A stretch of 9,399 nt of DNA from a virus (Duplodnaviria > Heunggongvirae > Uroviricota > Caudoviricetes): IMG/VR virus record IMGVR_UViG_2667527789_000017; one strand, given 5' to 3'. Under the pieces are notes generated by a model. That model was not told the origin of the DNA. It saw nothing but the letters and a program-made list of their open reading frames with translations, and ran no database searches. A program made the position numbers and the translations under genes. Each line of letters opens with the position of its first letter. The first letter of the stretch is position 1. This document shows, piece by piece, positions 2,796 through 8,457 of the stretch.

Positions 2796-3677
2796 TTACA
2801 TAGATGTTTCGTTTAATTCTTCCCGACAAACGCTGTAAACGTCGGTGGCTTTTGCCAGCAGTTCGTCATCATCTGAAAGTTTTTGTGCAATGTATTTGTA
2901 AGCCTTATCCAGTTCGGAGACAGTGCTGTAATTCATCGCTGCGCTGGTAAAGGCCATCAGCATTTCTTCTGGATCACGGCTATCCGCTTTACGCGTTTGC
3001 TCATCATGCTTTTTCGCTGGTTTAGCGTTGATCAGACTGTTCATTCCCGCAGCAGTAGTCGTTTGCGGAGTAATGTCTCGCTCAACACGCGGTGCCGTTT
3101 CCTGTAATTCGTCAGGGGTGTAAACACCGAGAAGCACATCAGGAGCGTGCAGGCGAGCCCATCGTTTCGTGCAAAGATAGGCAAGCTGCTGGCGCGGATC
3201 CTGTTCCCACAATGGAGAGTTACGCACTCCGGCTTGCGCCATACTGATGGTAAGCTCACGGGGTTCTGCTTCTCCTTTAAGAACTGCTGACACAGTTACC
3301 GTCAGATTCGGTGATTTATCTGTTTTGCCGTTAACATTCGACCAGTCACCGCTCCAGCGATAATTCAGGCGTGTCGCTAGCAGGCTGGAAGAGGATACGA
3401 CCGCGTTTACCAACTGTGCTTCGTAGCCTAACGTTCCGTTTACCACATGCGTTTTCTGCGCCACGGCGAAAGGGTTCATTCCCCACTGTGCCGCCTGCAT
3501 GGTCACCGCCAGACAATCGGCAGGTTTGCCTTCAAGATGTTTCGGTACAGTCGCTTTGCTTTGTGACATCAACTCCGCGAAACGCACCAGTTGATTCATG
3601 CCCTCCGGGCTGAAGATTGCCGCAGCAGTACCTACAGTTGCGCCTGGTTGTGATGTGATTGCGATATCATTGCTCAT
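2796..3677 (-). CDS. bet: Bet/Redbeta-family single-strand annealing protein (RecT superfamily)
   Basis: 293-aa ORF; local similarity by eye to lambda Bet (window NPFAVAQK... / RQQLAYLCTKRWARLHAPDVLLGVYTPDELQE / RVERDITPQ versus lambda NPWTKEIYAF... / MLRHKAMIQCARLAFGFAGIYDKDEAER / ERQPERDITP). ATG at 3677 overlaps the exonuclease stop (ATGA). Confidence 0.85.
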   Translation of the reverse strand: MSNDIAITSQPGATVGTAAAIFSPEGMNQLVRFAELMSQSKATVPKHLEGKPADCLAVTMQAAQWGMNPFAVAQKTHVVNGTLGYEAQLVNAVVSSSSLLATRLNYRWSGDWSNVNGKTDKSPNLTVTVSAVLKGEAEPRELTISMAQAGVRNSPLWEQDPRQQLAYLCTKRWARLHAPDVLLGVYTPDELQETAPRVERDITPQTTTAAGMNSLINAKPAKKHDEQTRKADSRDPEEMLMAFTSAAMNYSTVSELDKAYKYIAQKLSDDDELLAKATDVYSVCREELNETSM

Positions 3678-4495
3678 ACGTACATATCCTGTTTACGTGC
3701 CCAGTCAGGGCGTTTAATAATTTCCACTCCGCCCCACTCATCGTTGATGCGGCATTCGTGATAGGTATTCAGATCCCGGCGGAACAGAGCGTGCCCGGCA
3801 TCGACATCCGGCGCATCCAGCTCGAACACGCGTACCGGATACCGACCACAATCAATGCTTTCGCTCACGGCAAGAAAGAAAAAACCATGCGGCTGACCAG
3901 TAACCCTCATTGCGCCTTCGCGGTACATTGCGTCCTGCACGTGGTAGCGGAATTCCTCGATGTGGCGTGCAAAACGGTCCATATCTGCAACCTTTTTCAC
4001 GTCGACGATCACGTTGTGCTCGTTCAGCCATTTGTCTGGACGAATGCGGCACAACTCACCAGTATCTTCATCGTTCCAGTACATTGATGCTTCGCAGTAA
4101 CCAGGTGCTTCCAGCATCCAGCGTGCCGCCGGGTGAGCCATTGCGCTATCACGCATCATCTCCAGTTTCCGCCACTGCTCGGCATCAAGTACCGTAATCC
4201 CCATATCCGCCACATCACGAAGAAATGCCTCTTCGTCAGCTTTACCTTGTTTCGTCCGACGATCGAATTTCGGTGAAACAATGAAGCGTTTGTCGAACTC
4301 TCCAGGCTCCAGAAGCAGACAGTGCAATGCGGTTCCCATATCCAGTGCAGACTTTTTCTCTTCGTCTTCTGGTGCTGCCTGAACCCATTTAAGAAGCGCC
4401 GGATTCTTGGCAACCATGTCCAGTTGCGACTTACTCACGCCGTCACCGGCGTGGTAGTCTTCGTTGCTGATGTCGAAATAAATTCCCGGTTTCAT
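3674..4495 (-). CDS. RecE-like PD-(D/E)XK exonuclease (exonuclease VIII C-terminal-domain type)
   Basis: 273-aa ORF beginning MKPGIYFDISNEDYHAGDGVSKSQL, the typical N-terminal signature of the short RecE-like / PDDEXK phage exonucleases; candidate catalytic residues in RIRPD ... IVDVKK (D ... D-x-K). Directly upstream of and translationally coupled to the annealing-protein gene. Confidence 0.8.
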   Translation of the reverse strand: MKPGIYFDISNEDYHAGDGVSKSQLDMVAKNPALLKWVQAAPEDEEKKSALDMGTALHCLLLEPGEFDKRFIVSPKFDRRTKQGKADEEAFLRDVADMGITVLDAEQWRKLEMMRDSAMAHPAARWMLEAPGYCEASMYWNDEDTGELCRIRPDKWLNEHNVIVDVKKVADMDRFARHIEEFRYHVQDAMYREGAMRVTGQPHGFFFLAVSESIDCGRYPVRVFELDAPDVDAGHALFRRDLNTYHECRINDEWGGVEIIKRPDWARKQDMYV

Positions 4496-4793: not shown

Positions 4794-4946
4794 TCAGCCC
4801 TCCCATATCTCGTTATCGTTGGCCACATCGCGAGCTTCTTTGCTGACGAAAGCCCACTTAATGCCTTCCTGTAAGGTGCGGAACTTCCAGCTCATGAATC
4901 CGCATGCAGTAACGCAGTACCAACCGTTGATGATTTTCCACTGCAT
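4794..4946 (-). CDS. Candidate small ORF (50 aa, MQWKIINGWYCVTACGFMSWKFRTLQEGIKWAFVSKEARDVANDNEIWEG), first gene of the leftward operon
   Basis: Not in the supplied ORF track (below its size cutoff). ATG at 4946 is preceded by GAGGT about 8 nt upstream; stop TGA at 4796-4794 lies 2 nt before the next gene's ATG at 4791. Trp/Cys-rich hydrophobic N-terminal half. Sits immediately downstream of operator site 4966-4980. Confidence 0.3.
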   Translation of the reverse strand: MQWKIINGWYCVTACGFMSWKFRTLQEGIKWAFVSKEARDVANDNEIWEG

Positions 4947-4965
4947 AACTTGTTACCTCGGCTTG

Positions 4966-4980
4966 TTACCTTTGAGGTAA
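4966..4980. promoter_or_regulatory. Operator-like palindrome TTACCTTTGAGGTAA (member of TTACC-N5-GGTAA family)
   Basis: Perfect 5-bp inverted half-sites with 5-bp spacer, directly read from sequence; just downstream of the pL-like promoter elements; an orphan TTACC half-site lies at 4953-4957. Confidence 0.7.
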
Positions 4981-4982
4981 TG

Positions 4983-5008
4983 ATTATGCGTATTTGGTTT
5001 GATGTCAA
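4983..5008 (-). promoter_or_regulatory. Putative leftward early promoter (pL-like)
   Basis: On the minus strand a consensus -35 TTGACA (+ strand 5003-5008) is followed by an A/T-rich -10 region CATAATCAT (+ strand 4980-4988). Exact -10 register is ambiguous (best hexamer CATAAT gives a 14-bp spacer). Flanked by operator sites at 4966-4980 and 5028-5042. Confidence 0.35.
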
Positions 5009-5027
5009 TAGATATGAGTTAAAAAAA

Positions 5028-5042
5028 TTACCTGCAAGGTAA
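5028..5042. promoter_or_regulatory. Operator-like palindrome TTACCTGCAAGGTAA
   Basis: Perfect TTACC-N5-GGTAA; centre 62 bp from the centre of site 4966-4980, upstream of the pL-like -35. Confidence 0.7.
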
Positions 5043-5055
5043 TTGTATGGGCAAT

Positions 5056-5078
5056 AAAAAAGCCGCCATGAGGCGGCT
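5056..5078 (-). terminator. Rho-independent terminator of the repressor gene
   Basis: Minus-strand reading: stem AGCCGCC, loop TCAT, stem GGCGGCT, followed by TTTTTTATT. Stem is + strand 5061-5067 paired with 5072-5078, and the U-run corresponds to the + strand A-run 5056-5060. Begins about 22 bp downstream of the repressor stop at 5100. Confidence 0.8.
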
Positions 5079-5099
5079 TACTTGCTGAAAACTATAGTT

Positions 5100-5684
5100 T
5101 TATTGTTTGCTTTTTTCGTTCTGGTTGATGACAAATTCAATGTAACTTTCGATCTTTGCTTTCTCGGTTTCGGGTAACAATGCGTAGCGCGAGCGGTCAT
5201 AGTTGATAGTCGCGGGGTCGTGCGGGTGAATCAGTAATTCATATCCGTGACGCCCGAATGCGGATGCAACATTCTCCAGGGTGGAAATGGAAACGCTGAC
5301 CTCATTGTTTAACAGGCGGCTGATTGTCACCTGGGCGACGCCGGATGCGCGGTGAAGTTTTCCCTGCGTTGAAAGGTCGCGGCTTTCGCTCATCCAGCGT
5401 TCCAGGTTGTGAGCCGCCAGCTGACCAATGTCGCTTGGTCCGACAGGCTGAAAACCTTCCTGAGAAAGCGAGCGATCGATATCAAGCCAGTTACGGGGTT
5501 TATTGGCGGCAGCTTCAATTTTTCGCGCAACCTGGTCGCCGATAACCTTCTTGCCAAGAGCCCAGCGGTTTACCAGATTTGCCTGAGTTCCAAGTTTTTC
5601 TGCCATCCGCGTCTGAACACCATTGAATTCACGGTCGATCAAGTCGTTGAGATTTTGCCTGCGGACGTCCTGGATACTTTTCAT
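5100..5684 (-). CDS. Prophage repressor (CI-like role) with two tandem Cro/C1-type HTH domains and no S24 peptidase domain
   Basis: 194-aa ORF divergent from a Cro-like gene across an operator-rich intergenic region. Two HTH_XRE-like segments: GVQTRMAEKLGTQANLVNRWALGKK and ASGVAQVTISRLLNNEVSVSISTLENVASAFG. C-terminus shows no LexA/CI-type autopeptidase signature. No SD within normal distance of the ATG at 5684, compatible with a leaderless or short-leader mRNA as for lambda cI from pRM. Confidence 0.75.
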   Translation of the reverse strand: MKSIQDVRRQNLNDLIDREFNGVQTRMAEKLGTQANLVNRWALGKKVIGDQVARKIEAAANKPRNWLDIDRSLSQEGFQPVGPSDIGQLAAHNLERWMSESRDLSTQGKLHRASGVAQVTISRLLNNEVSVSISTLENVASAFGRHGYELLIHPHDPATINYDRSRYALLPETEKAKIESYIEFVINQNEKSKQ

Positions 5685-5739
5685 TTTCTGGAAAATCGCC
5701 TCATATATGAATCAGTAGATGATTCAATTTAAAGCAATA

Positions 5740-5754
5740 TTACCCAACAGGTAA
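5740..5754. promoter_or_regulatory. Operator-like palindrome TTACCCAACAGGTAA (immunity region site 1)
   Basis: Perfect TTACC-N5-GGTAA in the divergent repressor/Cro intergenic region. Confidence 0.7.
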
Positions 5755-5756
5755 AT

Positions 5757-5771
5757 GCACCCCATAGGTAA
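5757..5771. promoter_or_regulatory. Operator-like site GCACCCCATAGGTAA (immunity region site 2, one half-site variant)
   Basis: Right half GGTAA perfect, left half GCACC instead of TTACC; centre 17 bp from site 1. Confidence 0.55.
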
Positions 5772-5777
5772 CTATCC

Positions 5778-5813
5778 TTGATTTTTGTTACCTTATGGGT
5801 GAATATTTATTAT
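5778..5813 (+). promoter_or_regulatory. Putative rightward promoter for the Cro-like gene (pR-like)
   Basis: Candidate -35 TTGTTA (5785-5790), 17-bp spacer, -10 TATTAT (5808-5813). Alternative -35 TTGATT (5778-5783) with -10 GAATAT (5801-5806). Operator site 3 overlaps the -35/spacer. Confidence 0.4.
5788..5802. promoter_or_regulatory. Operator-like site TTACCTTATGGGTGA (immunity region site 3, one half-site variant)
   Basis: Left half TTACC perfect, right half GGTGA (reverse complement TCACC, same variant class as GCACC). Lies in the spacer of the putative rightward promoter. Confidence 0.55.
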
Positions 5814-5838
5814 CTGAAATAAATATCAGGCAATAGCT

Positions 5839-6069
5839 ATGAGCGATAACGGACATTTCGATTTCAAAAAGCACTGGCTTGCACTTACTCCGGATGAGCG
5901 TGAAGCCTTCGCACAGGAAGCCGGAACGACGAGTCACTATATCCAGACTCACTTAACAGGTAAGCGCAAAATGCCAGGTAAGGTATTGATGAATGGGCTT
6001 TTTAAAGCCTGTAAAACAAGACAATGGCTGAGCTCAAAAGCAGAACTGGCATACTTCTTCTACTCATGA
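5839..6069 (+). CDS. Cro-like small HTH DNA-binding protein
   Basis: 76-aa ORF divergent from the repressor. AFAQEAGTTSHYIQTHLTGKRKMPGKVLMNGLFKAC resembles the Cro/YdaS-type HTH layout (compare lambda Cro [29 protein letters not shown]). Followed by a strong terminator. Confidence 0.7.
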   Translation: MSDNGHFDFKKHWLALTPDEREAFAQEAGTTSHYIQTHLTGKRKMPGKVLMNGLFKACKTRQWLSSKAELAYFFYS

Positions 6070-6090
6070 TATCCAGCCACAACCCTCTGT

Positions 6091-6114
6091 AGACCGCCAT
6101 CCGGCGGTCTTTTC
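6091..6114 (+). terminator. Rho-independent terminator after the Cro-like gene (tR1-like position)
   Basis: Stem AGACCGCC (6091-6098), loop ATCC, stem GGCGGTCT (6103-6110), then TTTT (6111-6114); 22 bp after the Cro-like stop. Confidence 0.8.
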
Positions 6115-6124
6115 ATATCTATTC

Positions 6125-6139
6125 GCACCTCAAAGGTAA
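6125..6139. promoter_or_regulatory. Operator-like site GCACCTCAAAGGTAA immediately downstream of the Cro-gene terminator
   Basis: Same family (GCACC variant left half, perfect GGTAA right half); lies 11 bp after the terminator T-run and about 80 bp before the next gene. Confidence 0.5.
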
Positions 6140-6217
6140 CAAAAAACCAAATCTGGTTGATCAAATTTTCCAATTGTGCAAAATAGCCAATATCAATAAC
6201 AAAAAGGGGCAGAAAAA

Positions 6218-6430
6218 TTGAAGATAGTAACCAGAATGGAGGCCGCAAAAGCCGGGTTAAATCGCTATTTCACAGGAAAGCGGTGCCGTCACGGCCATCT
6301 CTCTGAAAGGTATGTTCTGAACGGAACATGTGTTGAATGTGCAATGAATAGCGCCAACCGCCATCGTAATGAATTTGCTTGTGCACTAAAGAGTGCAAGA
6401 GGGGAAACCTATGGCAAGCAGCTGGATTAA
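6218..6430 (+). CDS. Small protein with putative zinc-binding motif (C-x-H-x-H ... C-x2-C), function unknown
   Basis: 70-aa ORF from TTG at 6218 preceded by AAAGGGG 8 nt upstream; an internal ATG at 6236 has no SD. Motif GKRCRHGHLSERYVLNGTCVEC. Occupies the position between cro and the replication genes where lambda has cII, but shows no similarity to CII. 3' end overlaps the next gene by 20 nt. Confidence 0.5.
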   Translation: MKIVTRMEAAKAGLNRYFTGKRCRHGHLSERYVLNGTCVECAMNSANRHRNEFACALKSARGETYGKQLD

Positions 6431-8032: not shown

Positions 8033-8047
8033 TTACCTGTTGGGTAA
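8033..8047. promoter_or_regulatory. Operator-like palindrome TTACCTGTTGGGTAA
   Basis: Perfect TTACC-N5-GGTAA, upstream of the promoter-like elements that precede the gene at 8113. Confidence 0.7.
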
Positions 8048-8066
8048 TAAAATATTCTAAAATCTA

Positions 8067-8095
8067 TTGATTTAGTGTCTTATGTGGTTTTTAAT
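8067..8095 (+). promoter_or_regulatory. Putative sigma70 promoter for the downstream operon
   Basis: -35 TTGATT (8067-8072), 17-bp spacer, -10 TTTAAT (8090-8095); predicted start site falls inside operator site 8096-8110. Confidence 0.45.
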
Positions 8096-8110
8096 TACCT
8101 TAGAGGTAAA
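8096..8110. promoter_or_regulatory. Operator-like palindrome TTACCTTAGAGGTAA overlapping the transcription start and RBS of the gene at 8113
   Basis: Perfect TTACC-N5-GGTAA; its GAGG doubles as the Shine-Dalgarno sequence 6 nt before ATG 8113; centre 63 bp from the centre of site 8033-8047. Confidence 0.7.
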
Positions 8111-8112
8111 TC

Positions 8113-8457
8113 ATGAGAAAACAGATACAGGCTCTTGGTCGACTCAAAACAGGCCAGATGAACAAAACAGAATCTGCGTATTGCCAGCACCTTGAGCTGC
8201 GTAAACGTGCAGGAGAAATCGTCTGGTATCGATTTGAGGGTATCAAGCTGCGGTTAGCTGACAACACGTTCTATACGCCCGATTTTGCTGTGATGCTCGC
8301 CACCGGCGAGATGGAACTGCACGAAGTGAAAGGTTTCTGGACCGACGACGCCAGGGTGAAAACCAAAGTCGCCGCAGATCAGTATCCGTTCCGAATCATC
8401 GGGGTAACGGTTAAACCAAAGAAAGCAGGTGGTGGCTGGAACATCGAAGAGTTCTGA
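8113..8457 (+). CDS. DUF1064-like phage protein with PD-(D/E)XK nuclease-type motif (putative structure-specific nuclease)
   Basis: 114-aa ORF; FYTPDFAVM ... ELHEVKG gives a D ... E-x-K arrangement typical of PD-(D/E)XK nucleases. Overall pattern recalls the DUF1064 family of small phage proteins, assigned from memory only. Confidence 0.6.
   Translation: MRKQIQALGRLKTGQMNKTESAYCQHLELRKRAGEIVWYRFEGIKLRLADNTFYTPDFAVMLATGEMELHEVKGFWTDDARVKTKVAADQYPFRIIGVTVKPKKAGGGWNIEEF

Follow-up and report, generated by a model that had tools for sequence, protein, structure and literature searches.

What kind of control region separates a phage repressor gene from the Cro-like gene that diverges from it, and how far does it work like the OR region of lambda? 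The question is raised by a 154-bp stretch (positions 5685-5838) within 9,399 nucleotides of caudoviricete DNA (IMG/VR record IMGVR_UViG_2667527789_000017), a segment that we refer to as the window. The original prediction described this stretch as a lambda-like divergent switch with three operators. The three-operator divergent region is real and is confirmed by our analysis, while its interpretation as a lambda switch is partly supported. The stretch is the rep/cro intergenic control region of a phiV10/epsilon15-type prophage (Uetakevirus); it represents an immunity region already known in kind and no new kind of system. We hold with considerable confidence the overall reading developed here, in which the repressor Rep acts on operators in this control region and in a network of early promoters of a phiV10-type Uetakevirus prophage.

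The window is 98-99% identical in nucleotide sequence to phiV10, TL-2011b, ZX5, and others, and it is syntenic with the phiV10 and epsilon15 annotations. Comparison of its open reading frames and Pfam content with phiV10, Tyrion, and epsilon15 reveals the Uetakevirus gene order, with int ... recT-exo-gp36-gp37, rep, gp39, and gp40-dnaT-like-P-like. Across 5050-6250, phiV10, TL-2011b, vB_EcoP_ZX5, and HEMP4 are 98-99% identical to the window, with the same genes, operators, and terminators and few base changes, mostly within operator spacers; right of 6162, the window follows the TL-2011b/HEMP4 variant and not phiV10. The operators and promoters are unannotated in the records of these four phages, and our literature searches found no open paper describing such an operator layout. 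The open literature that we covered likewise contains no binding, footprint, or start-site data for this phage. The prophage is found in 540 of 5426 complete E. coli genomes, about one in ten, including APEC and STEC strains, and the switch thus governs a common mobile element.

Two regulator genes flank the control region:

5100-5684, minus strand: rep, 194 aa, with an N-terminal HTH, a middle HTH-like dimerization domain, and a C-terminal tetramerization/antirepressor-binding domain.
5839-6069, plus strand: Cro-like gene, 76 aa, HTH; phrog_35 'transcriptional repressor', E=1e-12.

Rep matches SPC32H Rep (PDB 5D50) over residues 1-190 (phmmer E=3.5e-42), its C-terminal half corresponding to the dimerization and tetramerization domains of that protein. 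Its Pfam content comprises HTH families only (HTH_3), and Pfam detects no S24 peptidase domain. Rep is 99.5% identical to the ZX5 repressor and 43-45% identical to the epsilon15/SPC32H Rep overall (53% in the DNA-binding domain), and both the recognition helix NLVNRW and a C-terminal motif are invariant across five Rep homologues. SPC32H Rep, for which crystal structures are available (5D50, 5D4Z), is described in papers that cite the work on it (PMC9986798 and the preprint PMC9638917) as an operator-binding tetramer with an N-terminal DNA-binding, a middle dimerization, and a C-terminal tetramerization/Ant-binding domain. Its inactivation is due to an antirepressor and not to cleavage through RecA. 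This homology, together with the 30/31- and 62-bp phasing of the operators described below, suggests that Rep of this phage is also a tetramer with two DNA-binding units. The ZX5 repressor blocks the lytic cycle and is opposed by an antirepressor, ORF4 having antirepressor activity; its overexpression lowers endolysin and holin transcripts by more than 99.9% (PMC9782041).

In the intergenic region, the repeat finder returned one 13-nt direct-repeat pair and matching inverted repeats, which resolve into three copies of TTACC-N5-GGTAA:

5740-5754: operator O1, TTACCCAACAGGTAA, a perfect palindrome with 0 mismatches, centre 5747.
5757-5771: operator O2, GCACCCCATAGGTAA, 2 mismatches, left arm degenerate, centre 5764.
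5788-5802: operator O3, TTACCTTATGGGTGA, 1 mismatch, one weak arm, centre 5795, inside the predicted PR core promoter.

These are the three operator-family sites that had been proposed, with centres 17 and 31 bp apart. The alternative that they are chance repeats or relics in an ordinary promoter-containing spacer without operator function has in its favour that simple promoter-like and terminator-like patterns are no more frequent in the region than in shuffled sequence. Against this reading, the window holds five perfect palindromes in 9.4 kb where about 0.01 would be expected (10 bases specified), and 11 matches at up to 2 mismatches against 2.65 expected, with at least 11 reached in 0 of 200 shuffles. 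Operator positions are also identical across 12 divergent loci from Escherichia, Enterobacter, Superficieibacter, Erwinia, Klebsiella, Citrobacter/Salmonella, and Scandinavium: a perfect O1 lies at a constant offset (+54 to +56) from the rep start in all 12, O1 and O2 are 17 bp apart in all 12, and O2 and O3 are separated by 31 bp in the E. coli group and 30 bp in the epsilon15 group. O3 has one xCACC-type arm in every relative compared. The spacings of 17, 30/31, and 62 bp recur throughout the 12 loci of seven genera, with invariant arms and variable spacers. The same pattern is seen among 80 near-identical phages, in which 0 of 30 arm positions but 5 of 15 spacer positions vary (P=0.0025), and 4 of the 12 polymorphic intergenic positions fall within the O2 N5 spacer, none in the O2 arms. 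Finally, 43 perfect sites from 8 genomes yield the consensus A-TTACC-N5-GGTAA-T, and in the GenBank record of epsilon15, homologous sites with the same palindrome carry a repressor annotation. Because of these statistics and this conservation, the chance or relic reading is already refuted, and we give it practically no weight. The N-terminal HTH of Rep would recognize the palindrome (A)TTACC-N5-GGTAA(T). O1 and O2 are 1.6 turns apart, on nearly opposite faces of the DNA, which we count against our main explanation.

Palindromes other than the operators are not conserved across all lineages. One further palindrome lies between O1 and rep:

5708-5726: TGAATCA-N5-TGATTCA, to which we assign no role, located where the epsilon15 group has a degenerate fourth operator.

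It occurs once in the window and shows no compensatory changes across relatives. In epsilon15 and Klebsiella phages, the counterpart (TTACCTAACTGA(C/T)TA) lies 29 bp from O1 and has 2-3 mismatches to the operator. A fourth Rep operator at this 'O0' position was rejected for the window, the best match having 5 mismatches, which is chance level.

The rightward promoter PR can be placed in two ways:

5778-5783, plus strand: inferred PR -35, TTGATT; TTGATTT is invariant in 12 of 12 aligned intergenic regions and TTGATTTTT in 11.
5801-5806, plus strand: inferred PR -10, GAATAT, 17 bp from TTGATT; aligns with AATAAT of the epsilon15 group.
5785-5790 and 5808-5813, plus strand: alternative PR, TTGTTA and TATTAT, 17 bp apart, reported by the promoter scan.

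We demoted the scan's promoter to a mere alternative: its -10 has lost A2 (TGTTAT) in three of six close relatives, two of which have also lost the G of the -35. TTGATT serves as the predicted -35 at 8067-8072 as well. The GAATAT hexamer has only 3 of 6 consensus matches, a point that counts against the main explanation. Site 3 had been described as overlapping the rightward -35 and spacer, which holds for TTGTTA-17-TATTAT; on the conserved TTGATT/GAATAT pair, it fills the spacer and extends 2 bp into the -10. The broader expectation is borne out that the repressor and Cro-type genes diverge from a control region containing three operators for the repressor, one of which sits on the rightward promoter. 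PR would drive the Cro-like gene only, and Rep on O3, covering spacer and -10, would exclude RNA polymerase, probably acting with O2, three helical turns away, via one tetramer. The Shine-Dalgarno sequence (SD) of the Cro-like gene, on which the original prediction was silent, is the weakest in the window (-2.5 kcal/mol). A LexA box-like sequence, CTGAAATAAATATCAG (5814-5829), was considered for LexA control of PR and rejected: its heterology index, computed with a matrix of E. coli LexA boxes, is 17.9, a score equalled or bettered at 17 other positions in the window, compared with 1.6 for the phage's real LexA box.

Each regulator gene is followed by a terminator:

5053-5079, minus strand (hairpin 5079..5060): terminator after rep; 8-bp stem, 6 G-C pairs, T-run; -18.8 kcal/mol, z -5.2 versus shuffles.
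6091-6116, plus strand (hairpin 6091..6110): terminator after the Cro-like gene; 8-bp stem, 6 G-C pairs, T-run; -15.0 kcal/mol, z -5.5.

Both are strong intrinsic terminators, as had been claimed, and both are annotated in phiV10. The rep terminator is conserved in the E. coli/Enterobacter group, and every relative retains a hairpin after the Cro-like gene, both sides of its stem having changed in Scandinavium. The two terminators make both regulators single-gene units, and to this extent they isolate the switch as proposed; the isolation does not extend to its operator, which recurs at no fewer than three more predicted promoters in the window. A PRE-like leftward promoter at 6093..6066 (TCTACA-16-TATCAT) was discarded, its sequence being unconserved in relatives.

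Judging from sequence, the same operator controls at least three further promoters in the window, which the original prediction had overlooked:

4966-5042, minus strand: PL, predicted leftward early promoter, with perfect operators at 5042..5028 and 4980..4966, 62 bp apart; -35 TTGACA 5008..5003, -10 AATCAT 4985..4980.
8033-8109, plus strand: third bracketed promoter (predicted), with perfect operators at 8033-8047 and 8095-8109, 62 bp apart; -35 TTGATT 8067-8072, -10 TTTAAT 8090-8095.
6125-6184, plus strand: PR2, predicted fourth promoter, for the replication operon, with a half-conserved operator-like site at 6125-6139 that has an invariant GGTAA arm; -35 TTGATC 6157-6162, -10 CAAAAT 6179-6184, GGTTGATC and AAAAT being invariant in 12 loci.

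PL and the third promoter share one geometry, in which the upstream operator is followed by 19 nt, the -35, 17 nt, and the -10, whose final T doubles as the initial T of the downstream operator. At PL, this geometry is conserved in the 12 loci and the homologous sites are annotated 'repressor' in epsilon15, as is the homologue of the upstream operator at 8033-8109. We propose that each other early operon is shut off directly by Rep: perfect operator pairs exactly 62 bp apart (about six turns) would bracket PL and the third, rightward promoter, one operator of each pair being centred near -62 and its partner lying over the start site, and the replication-operon promoter would be preceded by a weaker operator. 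If every downstream operon has its own repressor-controlled promoter, lambda-style antitermination would be unneeded. The pairing of sites by one Rep tetramer is suggested by their phasing, and the tightness of a 62-bp loop counts against the main explanation.

The expression of rep itself also bears on the lambda analogy. In lambda, CI stimulates its own transcription from a site adjoining the PRM -35 (centre about -42), and site 1 had been predicted to occupy this position, next to a leaderless-looking repressor start. The best candidate that we find is arranged differently:

5727-5755, minus strand: candidate rep promoter, with -35 TTTACC 5755..5750 overlapping O1, a 17-bp spacer, and -10 TTAAAT 5732..5727.

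The repressor ATG (5684) does lack a usable SD, as predicted: GAGG (5702..5699) lies 14 nt upstream, pairing with the anti-SD stops 13 nt short of the start codon, and no functional SD was found ahead of rep in any lineage compared. The sole conserved promoter-like element in the leftward direction places site 1 over the -35. Other than operators, the AATT(T/A)AA block is the one element that all lineages have kept in the stretch from O1 to the rep ATG, and no gaps interrupt its distance to O1. Our preferred candidate is TTTACC-17-TTAAAT, from which rep transcription would start near 5720; the resulting leader would be A/U-rich, 36 nt long, and devoid of a functional SD. Two points count against the main explanation here. 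The candidate has 8 of 12 consensus positions and no A at position 2 of its -10; moreover, this promoter would put O1 over the -35 (self-repression) and O2 near -44, and a perfect O1 in that place implies very tight self-repression, which is awkward for stable lysogeny. In ZX5, antirepressor overexpression lowers rep mRNA by 75% (PMC9782041), the opposite of what simple self-repression predicts, unless the promoter is turned off by the Cro-like protein.

A lambda-like arrangement would fit the ZX5 result: Rep at O1 (or O1 and O2) would contact RNA polymerase at a weak leftward promoter immediately to the left, and the rep mRNA would start at or near its ATG. Such a start would centre O1 at -63, a class-I activator position, and is consistent with the missing SD in every lineage as well as with the -10-like TACAAT, AAAAAT, and TTTAAT 4 nt before the ATG in the epsilon15/Klebsiella/Scandinavium lineages. 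In the lineage of this phage, no conserved -10/-35 lies at the right distance for a leaderless start; the only -10 candidate in the window, GATTTT (5697..5692), comes without a -35 and is polymorphic at positions 5692 and 5693 in 3 of 80 natural copies. For O1 to sit at -42, as in lambda pRM, transcription would have to begin near 5705, a start for which there are no conserved hexamers. Furthermore, the weak site on PR and the strongest site adjoining rep reverse the lambda order, and Cro-like repression in lytic growth explains the ZX5 result equally well. We consider the lambda-like arrangement unlikely. A 7-codon ORF (5704..5681) also lies just upstream of rep, its stop codon overlapping the start codon of the gene. 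BUCT554 and Erwinia share this ORF, whereas Tyrion and the epsilon15 group do not have it; it lacks an SD and is probably incidental. RNA structure in the rep and cro leaders was likewise dismissed (-5.9 and -5.8 kcal/mol, z -0.4 and -1.1), and no known RNA family scored above threshold within 4900-6300.

A second alternative concerns the Cro-like protein. Lambda Cro binds the operators of CI in reverse preference order, and here O1-O3 might similarly be shared with the Cro-like protein in another order (e.g., O1 first, to shut off rep), resulting in a two-protein bistable switch. The AlphaFold model of the protein is a five-helix HTH whose nearest folds are YdaS and 434 repressor/Cro, which would suit this role, although these matches have weak E-values of 0.2-1. 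The protein is 76% identical to epsilon15 gp39 while Rep is only 45% identical, a pattern that tracks the conserved operators, which are the only palindromes conserved in all lineages. Its recognition helix, SHYIQTHL, is on the other hand unrelated to ANLVNRW of Rep. We regard shared targets as a serious possibility that falls somewhat short of an even chance; this reading adds to the main explanation and does not exclude it.

We return to Rep as the regulator of the whole early region. Its recognition helix, like the operators and the Cro-like protein, stays conserved between Escherichia, Salmonella, and Klebsiella, while Rep itself drops to 45% identity. A more specific version of our reading combines two proposals: Rep would clamp promoters, with one tetramer on operator pairs 62 bp apart near -62/+1 around PL and the third promoter and 30-31 bp apart at PR, and immunity specificity would reside in the fast-evolving, antirepressor-binding half of the protein instead of in its recognition of operators. 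We advance this combination tentatively and think it rather less probable than not. If true, these phages would be cross-immune at the DNA level and yet differently inducible, and the divergent region would count as a symmetric four-site array (29-17-30 bp in epsilon15), one site of which was lost in the E. coli lineage. Induction itself may proceed by a LexA-controlled antirepressor that dismantles the Rep tetramer, and not by RecA-stimulated cleavage. A strong LexA box, CTGTATAAATACACAG (heterology index 1.6), lies ahead of the epsilon15-gp19-like gene p24 in phiV10, outside the window.

The closest known system is that of SPC32H and epsilon15, which share a homologous three-domain Rep, identical operator half-sites, and the same gene order. 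The SPC32H Rep-Ant system (PDB 5D50, 5D4Z) reportedly goes back to Kim & Ryu in 2013 and Kim et al. in 2016. In epsilon15, ATTACC-N5-GGTAAT is annotated as repressor sites, and the three-site array and the 62-bp pairs are found as here, the three intergenic sites being unannotated in its record. In that system, O2 is perfect and not degenerate as in this phage, O2 and O3 are 30 instead of 31 bp apart, and a degenerate fourth operator near rep takes the place of the unrelated palindrome. The epsilon15 group also has a third operator in the PL region and lacks canonical U-tracts after rep and cro.

Beyond this group, in Gifsy/Fels-2 prophages and coliphage 186 (Tum), cleavage of LexA leads to synthesis of a small antirepressor, which inactivates a non-cleavable repressor (PMC7380047). 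The induction logic that we suggest for this phage is alike, although neither its repressor nor its antirepressor is related to theirs; the gene for the antirepressor is located outside the window, and the LexA box upstream of p24 was seen only in phiV10. The pLS20 protein Rco is a tetrameric DNA-looping HTH repressor that bridges separated operators by means of a p53-like tetramerization domain (PMC9986798), a C-terminal fold that the same paper recognizes in SPC32H Rep as well. Rco differs in being a plasmid conjugation regulator, in lacking the middle dimerization domain, and in its operators.

The analysis yields a complete, testable repressor map of the early region, with three sites between rep and the Cro-like gene, two promoters bracketed by operators, and a single upstream site, and this map marks where the lambda analogy fails. 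The likeness to lambda OR comprises the divergence of a repressor gene from a Cro-type gene, a set of three palindromic operators spanning about 60 bp with an operator on PR, a repressor gene whose SD is poor or absent, and a terminator after cro. The suggestion that this layout was built from unrelated parts is half true, given that the Rep DNA-binding domain is a Cro/CI-type HTH and that the Cro-like protein models as a 434-Cro/YdaS-type five-helix HTH. The differences lie in arrangement and mechanism. Lambda OR operators are 23-24 bp apart, compared with 17 and 31 bp here; the strongest lambda site is on PR and the weakest on PRM, whereas in this phage the perfect O1 adjoins rep and O3 on the predicted PR has a weakened arm. 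Lambda CI has an S24 peptidase and undergoes RecA cleavage, while Rep lacks such a module and is, by homology, tetrameric. Where lambda relies on N antitermination, this phage appears to provide each early operon with an operator-flanked promoter of its own.

The 154-bp region at 5685–5838, which separates the repressor gene rep (5100..5684, minus strand) from a gene for a 76-aa Cro-like protein (cro; 5839..6069, plus strand), belongs to the epsilon15/SPC32H Rep-Ant (repressor-antirepressor) system by every feature testable here. The surrounding 1.2 kb is 98–99% identical to the Escherichia phages HEMP4, TL-2011b, ZX5, and phiV10 and 77% identical to the Enterobacter phage Tyrion, all epsilon15-like podoviruses of the genus Uetakevirus; 540 of 5426 complete E. 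coli genomes carry this stretch, almost always as a single chromosomal copy. By its ORFs and Pfam hits, the window corresponds one to one with the genes annotated in phiV10, Tyrion, and epsilon15, in the order integrase, MT-A70 methylase, AlpA-like, RecT, PD-(D/E)XK exonuclease, two small genes, repressor, 76-aa gene, small gene, DnaT-like, lambda-P-like, and DUF1064. RecT (2796–3677) and the exonuclease (3674–4495) are encoded by two distinct genes that overlap, as they do in Tyrion; the phiV10 annotation has one fused ‘recET’ ORF (L001 686–2446).

The region contains three copies (O1–O3) of a 15-bp palindrome, TTACC-N5-GGTAA, whose centres bear out the three sites, 17 and 31 bp apart, of the original prediction. 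The repressor network exceeds this region and includes the following elements:

Operators and associated promoters in the window
5740–5754: O1, TTACCCAACAGGTAA, no mismatches, centre 5747
5757–5771: O2, GCACCCCATAGGTAA, two mismatches, centre 5764
5788–5802: O3, TTACCTTATGGGTGA, one mismatch, centre 5795
5028–5042 and 4966–4980: perfect operators flanking the leftward early promoter PL
5008..5003 and 4985..4980, leftward: −35 (TTGACA) and −10 (AATCAT) of PL, just past the rep terminator
8033–8047 and 8095–8109: perfect operators flanking a third promoter
8067–8072 and 8090–8095, rightward: −35 (TTGATT) and −10 (TTTAAT) of the third promoter
6125–6139: operator-like site after the cro terminator, with only the GGTAA arm invariant

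At up to two mismatches, the window holds 11 matches to the palindrome, five of them perfect, against 2.65 expected, and none of 200 shuffled windows reached 11. Variation among 80 near-identical IMG/VR copies is confined to 12 of the 154 intergenic positions, sparing all 30 operator arm positions but affecting 5 of the 15 spacer positions (P=0.0025). Four of the 12 fall in the O2 spacer (5762–5766), a local hot spot of variation.

We further compared twelve loci, comprising the window, phiV10, Tyrion, BUCT554, epsilon15, and seven prophages (Superficieibacter, Erwinia dacicola, two Klebsiella, two Citrobacter, and Scandinavium). All 12 keep O1 54–56 bp from the rep start, O1 and O2 17 bp apart, and O2 and O3 30 or 31 bp apart, and the operator pairs that bracket promoters lie 61–63 bp apart; the site after the cro hairpin is recognisable at up to two mismatches in nine. 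The operator arms are invariant and the five central bases vary freely, giving the extended consensus A-TTACC-(T/A)nWn(A/T)-GGTAA-T (n=43 perfect sites). Outside the operators, just two blocks within 5685–5838 are kept across all lineages: (C/A)TTGATTTTT and AATT(T/A)AA. In the GenBank record of epsilon15, four sites with the operator motif (ATTACC-N5-GGTAAT) are labelled as ‘repressor’ binding sites; the three rep–gp39 intergenic sites also exist there, though without annotation, and the record of phiV10 has no operator annotation. A perfect palindrome, TGAATCA-N5-TGATTCA (5708–5726), sits between O1 and the start of rep; it has no second copy in the window, and close relatives keep just its outer TGAA/TTCA bases. 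At the equivalent position, epsilon15 and the Klebsiella phages have a degenerate repressor operator, which makes a near-symmetric four-site array (29-17-30 bp).

From its sequence, we assign the rightward promoter of cro, PR, to TTGATT (5778–5783) and GAATAT (5801–5806), the latter aligning with AATAAT of epsilon15. This assignment would place O3 in the spacer and at the −10 edge, O2 at about −49, and O1 at about −66, so that the overlap of site 3 with the spacer originally proposed is retained, while its overlap with the −35 gives way to the −10 edge. A scan offered TTGTTA-17-TATTAT instead, which we retain just as an alternative: three close relatives have lost its critical −10 A, and two of them also lack the −35 G.

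For rep, the candidate promoter TTTACC (5755..5750)-17-TTAAAT (5732..5727) keeps both its position and its form among the relatives, and its −10 is similar to that of the third promoter, but it is weak and its own −35 is covered by the perfect O1. Transcription might instead start leaderless at 5684, for which the epsilon15 group has a plausible −10 (TACAAT, four nt before the ATG), whereas the window has just GATTTT without a −35, and this hexamer varies among natural copies. A start near 5705, which would put O1 at −42, in line with the lambda-like placement originally proposed, is a further candidate, but one that no conserved hexamers support.

At both PL and the third promoter, the centres of the paired operators are exactly 62 bp apart, and the layout is common to both: upstream operator, 19 nt, −35, 17 nt, −10, with the last T of the −10 doubling as the initial T of the downstream operator. 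The downstream operator of the third promoter, TTACCTTAGAGGTAA, also contains the GAGG used as SD by the gene that starts at 8113, and repressor and ribosome binding thus share the same bases at 8033–8112. A replication-operon promoter, GGTTGATC-16-CAAAAT, lies 17 nt beyond the 6125–6139 site and is conserved in all 12 loci, with no downstream operator (6125–6184); one possibility is that it is silenced in the lysogen through a loop of about 340 bp to O3. The whole phiV10 genome has eight perfect sites against about 0.04 expected, five in the early region and the others in the packaging/late-gene region and close to a putative antirepressor gene; the O-acetyltransferase gene has a one-mismatch site next to it, and the integrase gene has one immediately upstream. 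Rep may be a genome-wide regulator. Outside the early region, perfect or one-mismatch palindromes occur (L017, phiV10 coordinates) at 87 (terminase end), 3252 (before p06), 20497 (near the putative antirepressor gene), 24692 (adjoining the O-acetyltransferase gene), and 26870 (upstream of integrase).

Free energies, z-scores, and the phiV10 annotation, which carries both, agree with the strong terminators predicted after rep (AAGCCGCC-TCAT-GGCGGCTT then TTTTTT; −18.8 kcal/mol, z −5.2) and after the 76-aa gene (AGACCGCC-ATCC-GGCGGTCT then TTTT; −15.0 kcal/mol, z −5.5). As also predicted, the rep ATG (5684) lacks a usable SD and has only a GAGG 14 nt before it; no gene of the window has a weaker SD than the 76-aa gene. 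A minus-strand seven-codon ORF (5681–5704; ATGAGGCGATTTTCCAGAAAATGA), whose stop overlaps the rep ATG, is present in BUCT554 and Erwinia and absent from Tyrion and epsilon15.

Along its entire length, Rep (194 aa) matches the crystal structure of the Salmonella phage SPC32H repressor (PDB 5D50; E=3.5e-42), and Pfam finds no S24 peptidase domain in it. Published work divides SPC32H Rep into a DNA-binding domain at the N-terminus, a dimerisation domain in the middle, and a C-terminal domain for tetramerisation and binding of the antirepressor Ant; on palindromic sites, Rep is a tetramer whose DNA-binding pairs are drawn from different dimers, and Ant takes this tetramer apart (PMC9986798; PMC9638917 preprint). 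The middle domain corresponds to the second ‘HTH’ that Pfam reports. The ZX5 repressor is 99.5% identical to Rep; its overexpression abolished free phage and lowered lysis-gene transcripts (endolysin, holin) by >99.9%, and overexpressed antirepressor favoured lysis and brought rep mRNA down by 75% (PMC9782041). SPC32H is induced via a LexA-controlled antirepressor, according to a review (PMC7380047). Outside the window, phiV10 has a strong LexA box (L017 20822–20837; heterology index 1.6, scored with a matrix built from E. coli LexA boxes) upstream of the epsilon15-gp19-like gene p24, with repressor palindromes on either side (20497 and 20877). A LexA-box lookalike in the cro leader, CTGAAATAAATATCAG (5814–5829), scored poorly (17.9) and was rejected.

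The 76-aa protein matches phrog_35 ‘transcriptional repressor’ (E=1e-12), and its single-sequence model is a five-helix HTH (pLDDT 77), nearest to YdaS, 434 repressor, and 434 Cro, with weak E-values and TM about 0.6. It is 76% identical between the window phage and epsilon15, far better conserved than Rep, which fits a protein that recognises conserved DNA, possibly the same operators as Rep. The Rep recognition helix, NLVNRW, is invariant, while overall Rep identity falls to 43–47%. Conservation of the operators and the Cro-like protein across the genus, set against a drop of Rep to 45% (43% in its C-terminal half), suggests that immunity types may be distinguished by their response to the antirepressor and not by DNA recognition.

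With the sites and Rep homology established, we infer a scheme of operator pairing, promoter choice, autoregulation, and Cro targets in which Rep tetramers would block PR at O3, probably in combination with O2, which lies three helical turns off, and further tetramers would bracket PL and the third promoter via the 62-bp pairs (about six turns). With their terminators, rep and cro would each form a unit of one gene, and the early operons would each be repressed directly rather than via antitermination. On DNA damage, the promoter of the antirepressor gene would be freed of LexA, and the antirepressor would dismantle Rep.

Given its Rep-Ant membership and near-identity to phages sequenced since 2005, this control region is already known in kind; the residual interest is modest and lies in the operator geometry, which appears unpublished, and in the rep promoter. 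The lambda-like switch of the original prediction stands in its divergent outline but loses several lambda-defining features. In contrast to lambda, Rep does not have the character of a cleavable repressor, the operator spacing differs, the order of site strengths is reversed, and each operon has a separate promoter.
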